Assembly: GCA_043823435.1 (NCBI GenBank)
Contig: JBDRAV010000016.1
Span: 1,122-65,121 of the forward strand
Direction: 5' to 3'
DNA length: 64,000 nt
Origin: Candidatus Omnitrophota bacterium
GTDB taxonomy: Bacteria > Omnitrophota > Gorgyraeia > Gygaellales > Profunditerraquicolaceae
Shown: positions 31,887 through 32,988 of the stretch, one piece after another
Layout: every line of letters starts with the position of its first letter
Position numbering within the stretch: the first letter of the stretch is position 1
Notes under the pieces: model-generated
Seen by the model: the letters and a program-made list of their open reading frames with translations, nothing else
What the model was told of the DNA's origin: nothing
The model's database searches: none
Translations under genes and position numbers: made by a program

Positions 31887-32988
31887 AACCAAAGGGGCCA
31901 GAGATATGTTATATGACGGCGTAATTAAAAGATACAGGAAGTATTTGCCGGTAACTGATAATACTCCCGTAATAACTTTGAAAGAGGGAAATACGCCTCT
32001 TATAAGCGCAAATTATTTGAGCAGATTGATAGGCCGGAATTTTGAGGTTTATCTGAAATGCGAAGGCCTTAATCCGACAGGCTCTTTTAAAGATCGCGGC
32101 ATGACCATGGCTATTTCTAAAGCCTGCGAAGAGGGTTCGAAGGCGGTTATGTGCGCTTCTACCGGCAATACCTCGGCTTCTGCTGCCGCCTATGCTGCTA
32201 GGGCCGGCCTAAAATGCATAGTGCTTATTCCGCGCGGTGCAATCGCTTTAGGGAAACTAAGCCAGGCTCTGATTCATGGAGCAGTTGTGCTAGCTATAGA
32301 CGGAAATTTTGACGACGCCTTAGGCCTGGTACGGGAGATCACCGAAAATTACCCTATAACCCTGGTAAACTCTTTGAATCCTTACCGCATAGAAGGCCAG
32401 AAGACAGCTAGCTTTGAAATATCTGATTGTCTGGGCGAAGCGCCGCTTTTTCAGGTTATGCCGGTCGGTAACGCCGGTAATATCACGGCTTATTGGAAGG
32501 GTTATAAGGAGTATAAAGCTGCCGGGAAAATCAAGATTTTACCCAGGATGCTCGGTTTCCAGGCACAGGGTTCAGCGCCCATAGTAAAAGGGCATCCGAT
32601 AAAACACCCCAATACCATAGCCACCGCTATTCGTATCGGTAATCCTGCCAGCTGGAAGCAGGCAGAGCGCGCGCGCGATGAATCTGGGGGGCTTATTGAT
32701 ATGGTTTTGGATAGCGAGATCATCTCTGCCTATAAAATACTTGCAGCAAAGGAAGGGATATTCGTTGAACCGGCCTCCGCCGCTTCTATCGCCGGGTTGT
32801 TAAAATTAACAAGGAAGGGGTATTTTAAAGGCTCCAAGCTCCAAGCTCCAAGCTCCAAACCTATAAGAATAGTTTGCATTCTTACCGGTCATGGCTTAAA
32901 AGACCCGGATAGGGCTATAAAAACCATAAGGCAGCCGAAAGTAATAAAAGCGAACTTGAAGGCAGTATTGAAAGAAATAGGTTATTGA
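31879..32988 (+). CDS. thrC: Threonine synthase
   Basis: 369 aa. PLP-lysine context [19 protein letters not shown]. The start could also be ATG 31906. Contains a 4 x 7-nt array at 32831-32858. Confidence 0.94.

Follow-up and report, generated by a model that had tools for sequence, protein, structure and literature searches.

Heptanucleotide arrays at thrC, hisS, and gatA

The stretch of DNA considered here (the window) comprises 64,000 nucleotides (nt) of contig JBDRAV010000016.1 from an uncultured member of the Omnitrophota; its ThrC, GatA, and HisRS are 100% matches to proteins of a Candidatus Omnitrophota genome assembled from a metagenome. It contains co-oriented housekeeping genes, three of which, thrC, hisS, and gatA, are each associated with a short tandem array of 7-nt units. 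An earlier note, made from the sequence alone, described these arrays as insertions of one heptamer, TCCAARC, inside three essential genes. All three arrays are present, but the one at hisS lies at the C-terminus and gene junction rather than inside the gene; the common unit holds for thrC and hisS but not for gatA, where no unit is exact; and an insertion is evident in the thrC loop but not at the gatA site, which shows no net gain relative to Aquifex GatA.

The thrC array (32831-32858, forward strand) consists of four exact GCTCCAA units and is in frame within the open reading frame (ORF) at 31879-32988. It encodes SKLQAPSS, in a turn between a helix and the strand RIVCILTG, and alignment with the Aquifex ThrC structure 2ZSJ indicates that this loop is a 9-residue insertion. 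(The AlphaFold model of this ThrC is poor, with a predicted local distance difference test score of 51, and has been used for the secondary structure flanking the loop only, where it agrees with the 2ZSJ alignment.) The hisS array (56574-56608, forward strand) reads AACTCCA AACTCCA GACTCCA AACTCAT AACTTCA, that is, about five units with the final two degenerate; a tandem-repeat count scores it as AACTCCA x3.7, with the stop codon included in the array. The hisS ORF (55335-56603) encodes the tail CNSKLQTPNS from this array, and its TAA stop (56601-56603) begins inside the fourth unit, while the repeat itself reaches across the end of the gene into the hisS/aspS junction. It is thus a junction array that the ORF reads into at its C-terminus. 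Ahead of the aspS ATG (56622), no Shine-Dalgarno-like purine run is visible by eye. As RNA, both the thrC and the hisS arrays are predicted to be unstructured.

The gatA array noted earlier (site 1; 2468-2495, forward strand, ORF 2297-3769) is a degenerate period-7 repeat of four units, TCCCAAC TCCCAGC TTCCAGC TCCAATC, encoding SQLPASSSN. None of its four units is an exact TCCAARC, so that the period is 7 yet the fit to the common unit is loose, and the site has the same length as in Aquifex GatA (3H0L). When a three-unit TCCAARC probe is run over the window with as many as 3 mismatches allowed, no arrays other than those of thrC and hisS are hit (6 overlapping matches versus 0.03 expected), while the single heptamer occurs 18 times against 17 expected, with 6 of the 18 inside arrays. 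The CTCCAAR arrays of thrC, hisS, and gatA have no common flanks or ends, and no target-site duplication is obvious by eye at any of the three. A right boundary, CTCCAAnCTATA, shared by thrC, gatA, and the folP gene of another locus (L087) was considered as an element end and rejected, because in thrC and gatA it is native conserved coding sequence (IRIV and NLYLKG, respectively). Farther downstream, gatA carries a second array that the earlier note had missed (site 2; 3287-3323, forward strand), which consists of AGAACCG/AGAGCCG x5.3 and encodes RTESREPRTENR. Its unit is unlike that of site 1, and here the protein has 5 residues more than Aquifex GatA 3H0L.

Abundance and placement of period-7 arrays

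Six period-7 arrays are found in the window, compared with 0.2 in codon shuffles, and by the criterion used for period 7 there are none with periods of 6 or 8-15. To place this number in context, arrays were counted in a close clade, consisting of ten syntenic loci from close relatives, and in control loci, which come mostly from other phyla and were among the matches listed for ThrC in genome contigs. Per 100 kb, the window has 9.4 period-7 arrays and the close clade has 16.8, compared with 2.5 for the remaining Omnitrophota and 2.45 for other phyla; other periods from 5 to 12 reach only 0-4.3 arrays per 100 kb in the close clade. Local enrichment of period 7 is also seen in loci of Thermodesulfovibrionia (L011), Nitrospirota (L022), and Methylomirabilota (L078).

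Array size ranges from 3 to 5.5 units across the window and its relatives, and gene boundaries are favoured as locations. Twenty-two of 37 (59%) are intergenic or lie within 90 nt of an ORF end, a portion that makes up 23.6% of the sequence (P=3e-6). The remaining arrays, about 40%, are internal to genes and fall in recurrent hot spots such as the loop of thrC, both gatA sites, and five or more sites in ValS; the genes that bear arrays are thrC, gatA, hisS, valS, and folP. The idea of one special heptamer in three special genes therefore does not survive, since the window has at least four further arrays with other units and the clade is rich in many units.

Length steps and turnover among orthologues

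Sets of 120 orthologues each were assembled for ThrC (78-87% identical), GatA, and HisRS. In ThrC, the lengths of the loop between GYF and RIVCILTG cluster at 5-7, 11-15, 17-21, 23-27, and 33 amino acids (aa). The loop sequence varies as well; loops are often 7-residue periodic with differing units, as in LPITDYRLPIT, PTTNDQRPTT, HGTRYTVHGT, and RTTKHEARTT. GatA behaves in the same way: site 1 has lengths of 12-14, 18-22, and 26-28 aa and other 7-aa-periodic peptides (NLQLTTYNLQL, DSKLQTPNSKL, NSELITHNSEL), and site 2 has lengths of 10-13, 16-17, and 23-25 aa. In HisRS, the core ends with ...ELK(C) at residue 412-413 and the tails beyond it vary from 0 to 10 aa; ThrC N-termini vary likewise. 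The earlier argument that a 7-nt unit, not being a multiple of 3, would shift the frame upon any single-unit slippage is borne out by these lengths, which move in steps of about 7 aa, equivalent to three units.

The residues encoded at these positions are not a conserved functional peptide repeat: the sites are hypervariable and, in the case of the thrC loop and gatA site 2, shorter or absent in solved structures. Residues and lengths differ among orthologues at the thrC loop, both gatA sites, and the hisS tail, which supports the view that the arrays are features of the DNA rather than of a conserved protein. The outcome that the earlier note had named as speaking against it, namely repeat-less orthologues with the same residues, is not what is seen, because orthologues encode other residues at these sites.

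Comparison of close relatives indicates how quickly the arrays change. ThrC pairs whose cores are 96-98% identical have unrelated loops or none, as in KRENGKTGKRENK versus RRQAR, and a further pair with a near-identical core has NKTPNTQHPTPIR versus RDCPRRGLSLK. Within a single 90%-identity cluster, loops differ both by unit and by exactly 7 aa (NRFSVIGSRLSAEHRT..., 25 aa, versus NRFSAEQRT..., 18 aa), and GatA site 1 has 21 or 28 residues inside one such cluster. At the DNA level, these protein identities amount to about 88-90% across 12-21 kb of syntenic sequence, where coding indels include lengths of 21, 42, and 63 nt. Taken together, these comparisons show arrays turning over, through gain, loss, resizing, and replacement, at a far higher rate than the genes around them. 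Every full-length orthologue that was examined is in frame. A scan of Joint Genome Institute (JGI) metagenomes for strain variants at the thrC site, using the flanks separated by N{8,38}, found none. (The valS gene of L086, 17897-20596, which is split into four ORFs, was considered as a case of array-induced frameshifts and rejected: its breaks coincide with no array, and this, together with a contig name that suggests a long-read assembly, makes indel errors the probable cause.)

Unit sharing and the coding filter

Units were regarded as shared when they differ by no more than one mismatch on either strand. By this measure, 11 of 88 pairs of arrays within a genome share a unit compared with 36 of 887 pairs between genomes, a roughly 3-fold difference (permutation P=0.0012), and, with 20-64 kb of each genome sampled, any one unit is seen at 2-3 loci. 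In JAQTTO010000006.1, an exact CCAACGA x4 is present both in the thrC loop and in gatA site 2, 43 kb apart, and CTTACAG x4 in gatA site 1 has its reverse complement at the junction of the AIRC- and FmdE-domain genes. In L087, GCTCCAA x4-5 occurs at three sites, once in folP and twice in valS, where both copies belong to a composite, (GCTCCAA)4-GCTAGAA-(AGCCTGN)n, inserted at two sites. Homologous sites in other genomes carry different units. Two arithmetic and comparative points follow. Because 2 or 3 units would disrupt the frame of an essential gene, internal arrays cannot be built up by single-unit steps; and because unlinked sites of one genome have common units while homologous sites elsewhere are different, copying between arrays appears to be needed. 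Slippage alone does not explain the sharing of units within a genome.

Some of the recurrence of units can be attributed to the reading frame itself. Since 7 and 3 have no common factor, an array yields one cyclic heptapeptide in all three frames, and each base of the unit occupies the second codon position once per 21 nt, so that a unit's T count determines how many hydrophobic residues it encodes. On the sense strand, units lack stops and consist of 35% A, 35% C, 17% G, and 13% T; being poor in T, they specify hydrophilic heptapeptides. The mean grand average of hydropathy of the peptides is -1.04 for the sense strand versus +0.46 for the antisense strand (P=0.004), and the inserts are rich in R, Q, N, H, T, and S and poor in W, Y, V, C, I, and G. 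This coding filter narrows the vocabulary of units, yet it is insufficient to account for their recurrence, since in-gene arrays have related units in 17 of 153 pairs compared with 4.2 under a composition-matched, stop-free null (P=0.0004). The earlier suggestion that recurrence at unlinked coding sites is beyond chance thus holds for related units, but not for the lone heptamer, whose frequency is as expected.

Other arrays, repeats, and genes in the window

A further period-7 array, AGTAGTT AGTAGAT AGCAGAT AG (10407-10429, forward strand), lies at the stop of an AIRC-domain ORF (9746-10411) and just upstream of an FmdE-domain ORF (10438). Its GATAGCA unit reappears as the reverse complement at 33034-33052, while the homologous AIRC/FmdE junction in L398 has a different unit, GCTGTAA. 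The thrC/coaB junction contains a composite element (32988-33062, forward strand) with TAGCGTA x4.3 (32993-33022), a 13-nt loop, and inverted TAGCRNN units (33034-33058), which together fold into a long hairpin (RNA fold -25.3 kcal/mol, z score -3.4). A second TAGCGNN composite (16034-16125, forward strand) lies at the junction of two CdhD/Pterin_bind-type CO-dehydrogenase/acetyl-CoA-synthase genes. These elements of 80-95 nt, built from direct and inverted heptamers, thus exist as two junction copies with the same ends (AGKATTARCGYATAGCGTAGAGCGTYTAG ... CGCTAAACGCTAAA). A period-8 array, GTTCGTAA x4.2 (51172-51205, forward strand), is located in the guaA/dnaE junction upstream of dnaE, and in a relative, L395, a period-8 array, GGGAAAAC x4, makes up a 24-nt insertion in the thrC loop. 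Consequently, 7 is the dominant period and not the sole one.

Other kinds of repeat are present as well. Within valS (ORF 39572-42289), one 27-nt hairpin element, GGGTCAG[A/T]CCCCTTCGGGGACAGA[T/C]CC, is inserted in frame at two hot spots of ValS, 40858-40884 and 41035-41061, 177 nt apart, encoding GQ(T/S)PSGTDP (RNA folds -14.0 and -24.9 kcal/mol; z scores -2.0 and -4.4); L087 has a different shared insert at both of these sites. The pair resembles, in miniature, the situation of the Rickettsia palindromic elements discussed below. Arrays with a 23-nt period, consisting of the palindrome GCACCNGGTGC and GATTRG-type spacers, lie in the gatA/gatB spacer (3773-3855) and downstream of groEL (48218-48270), and have no Rfam match. 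Intergenic hairpins that are like repetitive extragenic palindromes (REPs), with GGGAC.../...GTCCC ends, e.g. AGGGACACTTCTCCGGCCAATCGGAGAAGTGTCCCC, are found at 37913-37971, 45133-45255, 12257-12292, and 34935-34970 and also at 12348-12393 and 35075-35097, several at a 23-nt spacing; these hairpins are a second class of dispersed short repeats in a compact genome. Rfam identifies only tRNAs in the window.

The genes of the window include gatAB, tsaD, a CO-dehydrogenase/acetyl-CoA-synthase cluster, tilS, ftsH, hom-thrC-coaB, valS, uvrB, groEL, guaBA, dnaE, hisS-aspS, and recO. Over positions 1-64000, every substantial ORF and all five tRNA genes (17445, 26542, 26743, 27161, 29691) are on the forward strand, and with a positive GC skew throughout, the 64 kb appears to be fully co-oriented with replication. 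The cluster at 10886-16925, beside gatAB and tsaD, has CdhD, RACo, CooC-like ATPase, and Pterin_bind domains of the CO-dehydrogenase/acetyl-CoA-synthase type, which suggests a Wood-Ljungdahl-type module in this Omnitrophota genome.

Occurrence beyond the clade

Exact GCTCCAA x3 is present in at least 120 metagenome contigs that range from 31 to 73% GC, mostly as arrays of 4-5 units, and 32 of 126 arrays in metagenome contigs have an inverted mate within 300 nt. (Sorting these matches into sense and antisense coding proved uninformative, since chance alone produces long spans without stops when GC is high.) In viral contigs, CTCCAAR x3 has 41 matches and AAGAACC x3 has at least 120, compared with 16 for CCAGCAT, 6 for GCAGATA, and 1 for ACCGCAT. 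The possibility that GCTCCAA is uniquely common was therefore rejected: the control units, with 1 to at least 120 viral matches, indicate that it is common and not unique, and that heptamer arrays are generic, with very uneven usage of units.

Marine phage contigs L099 (4729-6153), L091, L093, L094, and L129 (GC 36-38%) carry several CAAGCNN arrays (GCTTGGA, GCTTGTG, GCTTGAG), which are intergenic, upstream of genes, and about 500-700 bp apart; L099 also has a terminase-like ORF (9526-11061). Extreme cases are the viral contig L100 (12.4 kb), with 14 period-7 arrays over 12 kb, L213, with two long AAGAACC arrays (126 and 155 bp; 3455-4190), and L148, with a 599-bp CTCCCCG array (8881-9479). 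In high-GC soil contigs L155 (2950-3100), L248 (7390-7480 and 7636-7730), and L136 (3870-4010), (CTCCAAG)n is often followed 20-100 nt on by its reverse complement, giving long hairpins whose arms are AANNNCC heptamers. The region of the L248 pair, which includes a GGATCCC array, looks coding from the surrounding sequence, without an ORF call.

Comparison with known repeat systems

The literature search found no description of heptamer arrays in Omnitrophota. Dispersed four-unit heptamer arrays, some in genes, are known from other bacteria (PMC4692102, PMC2700814, PMC4679880). According to the accounts of Mrazek et al. 2007 given in PMC4679880 and PMC4692102, heptanucleotides are the most abundant of the longer simple-sequence repeats in prokaryotes, and polymerase slippage has been proposed as their origin. 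These long simple-sequence repeats (LSSR; Mrazek, Guo & Shah 2007), and the short tandemly repeated repetitive (STRR) sequences of Calothrix PCC 7601 as cited in PMC4692102, are like the arrays described here in their 7-nt tandem unit, their many dispersed loci, their sporadic distribution among lineages, the slippage proposed for them, and the unexplained period of 7. As far as these accounts go, the arrays here differ in having an uncultured Omnitrophota carrier, many units per genome, and a large share that is in frame in conserved enzymes. The Omnitrophota arrays thus have the features of the dispersed-heptamer class: an excess of period 7 over chance and over other periods, about four units, positions at ORF ends, and variability between close relatives.

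Among individual systems, Xanthomonas has about 186 GGGAATC arrays and Nostoc has GGGGAYT arrays, with a preference for four units and positions near ORF ends (PMC4692102). As here, most of these arrays are no more than 50 bp from an ORF end and are flanked by co-oriented genes, some extend over stop codons, and copy number is variable (PMC4692102); in contrast, the Omnitrophota sense units are A/C-rich, so that no G-quadruplex is possible on the sense strand, and 40% of the arrays are gene-internal. In Geobacter metallireducens, four tandem copies of GGGACCG/GGACCGG are present at 49 inter- and intragenic sites (PMC2700814). This system too has what the earlier note found striking, a four-unit heptamer at many unlinked sites, in genes, and in some cases two or more times within a single gene, but it involves a single GC-rich unit that has been read as a regulatory RNA element, and no comparison of turnover or length steps is reported (PMC2700814). 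For the TAACTGA repeats, which are shared by marine Beggiatoaceae, cyanobacteria, and Bacteroidetes, 169 sites with 2-6 copies are described, most of them immediately upstream of starts that lack a Shine-Dalgarno sequence (PMC4679880). As in our case, some overlap ORF ends or peripheries, and the unit spans distant phyla with no transfer mechanism evident (PMC4679880). TAACTGA contains stops in all forward frames and is therefore barred from genes in that orientation, while the Omnitrophota units are stop-free and several families coexist.

Two coding systems are also pertinent. In neuO, an accessory phage gene of E. coli K1, (AAGACTC)n varies from 3 to 53 units and on/off switching has been observed (PMC13001214). 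There, as here, a heptanucleotide coding array is read in three frames as a heptapeptide, and the frame is kept when the copy number is divisible by 3 (PMC13001214). Coding heptamer copy number thus sets the reading frame in both cases; however, the Omnitrophota arrays have about 4 units, lie in housekeeping genes rather than accessory or surface genes, and show no off alleles among the orthologues examined. The Rickettsia palindromic elements (RPEs) are selfish DNAs of about 150 bp with conserved sequence that are in frame in protein-coding genes (PMC10969869, a review). Like these elements, the present arrays place repeated DNA in frame in unrelated metabolic genes at fold-compatible positions (PMC10969869), but they are 21-40 nt long and have no conserved ends; only the hairpin composites (TAGCGNN and the valS GGGTCAG...GACCC) resemble RPEs. 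Indeed, the hallmarks of RPEs and of miniature inverted-repeat transposable elements (a conserved element, terminal inverted repeats, and several copies) are lacking in the three arrays and present in the two TAGCGNN copies and the two valS hairpins.

Origin of the arrays

Taken together, these observations lead us to regard the thrC, hisS, and gatA arrays as probably part of a population of short tandem heptanucleotide repeats (STRR/LSSR type, typically about four units) that extends through the lineage. In this view they are fast-evolving insertions at the DNA level, in junctions, protein termini, and a few permissive surface loops of housekeeping enzymes, rather than functional protein motifs, and some would have been copied. 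In such a process, slippage or unequal recombination would resize existing arrays, and purifying selection would remove variants that are out of frame, contain stops, or are hydrophobic, together with those at intolerant positions. This filter would enrich A/C-rich units such as CTCCAAR and AGAACCN, which would explain part of the apparent recurrence of one heptamer. For the copying, the likely route would be template switching or short-patch gene conversion with an existing array as donor, adding at least 3 units in one step, and such a gain would fit both the frame arithmetic and the sharing of units. Several points weigh against this explanation. The slippage, and the loss of out-of-frame alleles, are inferred from sequence; the three CTCCAAR arrays have no common flanking sequence, and that of gatA bears only a loose relation to those of thrC and hisS; the analysis turned up neither an enzyme nor a template for the copying; and the presence of GCTCCAA x3 in at least 120 metagenome contigs, and of related arrays in viral contigs, raises the possibility that some units may be favoured for other reasons. 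For the period of 7, which this explanation does not account for, an idea based on polymerase contacts is ascribed to Mrazek et al. 2007 in PMC4679880. The sampling behind these inferences covers 64 kb from the source genome and, for each relative, about 20-40 kb.

The sharing of units could instead reflect micro mobile or templated elements, in which the arrays, along with the hairpins of an array and its inverted partner, would be selfish insertions made by a dedicated trans-acting activity and tolerated in frame in permissive loops, as are the RPEs. Candidates for such an activity would be a transposase or an enzyme like the REP-associated tyrosine transposases (RAYT), a reverse transcriptase whose template is specific to the genome, or a function carried by phage. 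The genome-specific units common to unlinked sites, such as CCAACGA x4 at two places, would be expected from such elements, as would the valS composite of L087 at two sites, the TAGCGNN composite with its repeated ends, the impossibility of single-unit build-up in essential genes, and the spread of the same units over different phyla and phage contigs, frequently in inverted pairs. However, the simple arrays lack terminal inverted repeats, conserved ends, and any obvious target-site duplication, their copy number and unit vary continuously, Pfam annotation of the window reveals no candidate enzyme, composition and selection explain part of the unit sharing, and control heptamers also form arrays in viral contigs. 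We therefore view such elements as a possible but rather unlikely source. The most novel idea, that a genome-specific 7-nt unit is installed or homogenised by a process acting in trans, in one-step quanta of at least 3 units, at fixed permissive hot spots (gene junctions and surface loops of essential enzymes), is somewhat less likely still. A true copying or templating mechanism, for which the length steps and the sharing of units leave room, is unlikely, though not remotely so.

Dispersed STRR/LSSR-type repeats also seem preferable to explanations that assign the arrays a function. Junction arrays might be unstructured A/C-rich landing sites for ribosomes, or binding sites for a protein or a complementary RNA, with the in-gene copies as spill-over. 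This would suit the enrichment at gene boundaries, the position of several arrays 10-40 nt before starts without an obvious Shine-Dalgarno sequence (e.g., hisS/aspS and thrC/coaB), the lack of RNA structure in CTCCAAR arrays, and the complementary arrays within one genome (CTTACAG/CTGTAAG in L398; GATAGCA at 10407 and its complement at 33034 in the window), and a similar proposal has been made for the TAACTGA repeats (PMC4679880). Nevertheless, a regulatory role is improbable, as close relatives differ in unit at a given junction, which is incompatible with a conserved binding factor, two-fifths of the arrays are gene-internal, no factor has been identified, and the boundary enrichment is equally expected from tolerance of insertions. 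It is very improbable that thrC, gatA, and hisS are contingency loci of the neuO type, switched on and off by single-unit slippage. Of the possible copy numbers of a coding heptanucleotide array, just one in three keeps the frame, as in neuO (PMC13001214), but these are housekeeping genes with a single function, neither surface nor accessory, their arrays have about 4 units rather than 3-53, a frame shift at the hisS array, which lies at the stop codon, would alter the tail only, and every full-length orthologue examined is in frame. Finally, the window comes from a metagenome-assembled genome (MAG), which raises the question of chance or an assembly artefact. This can be dismissed with near certainty given the excess over shuffled sequence, the intact ORFs, and the same phenomenon in independent NCBI, JGI, ENA, and Logan assemblies. 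Moreover, arrays of 28-37 nt are shorter than typical short sequencing reads, which may also count against an artefact.

Significance

The Omnitrophota arrays join a known but mechanistically unexplained class of repeats and are not unique to TCCAARC or to three genes. Most useful among the new points are the length steps of 21 nt seen in conserved enzymes and the sharing of units specific to a genome. On a practical level, the arrays make start-codon calls variable and gene lengths heterogeneous when MAGs are annotated, and in the core enzymes of these organisms they create disordered heptapeptide loops. The origin of dispersed heptamers has been an open question since 1990 for STRR and 2007 for LSSR: why 7, why about four units, and how one unit comes to occupy many loci. 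In this respect the clade offers a clean natural experiment, with hundreds of near-identical metagenome orthologues, fixed hot spots in conserved enzymes, a reading frame that acts as a built-in filter passing 21-nt steps only, and a within-genome sharing of units that can be measured; together, these properties make slippage versus copying testable. If a trans-acting process were indeed at work, homologous sites would differ in unit between genomes while unlinked sites of one genome agree; a few units, CTCCAAG and AAGAACC, do turn up in several phyla and in phage contigs. Such a process would represent a new kind of minimal repeat system, mobile or templated, distinct both from slippage alone and from transposons, which have defined ends.

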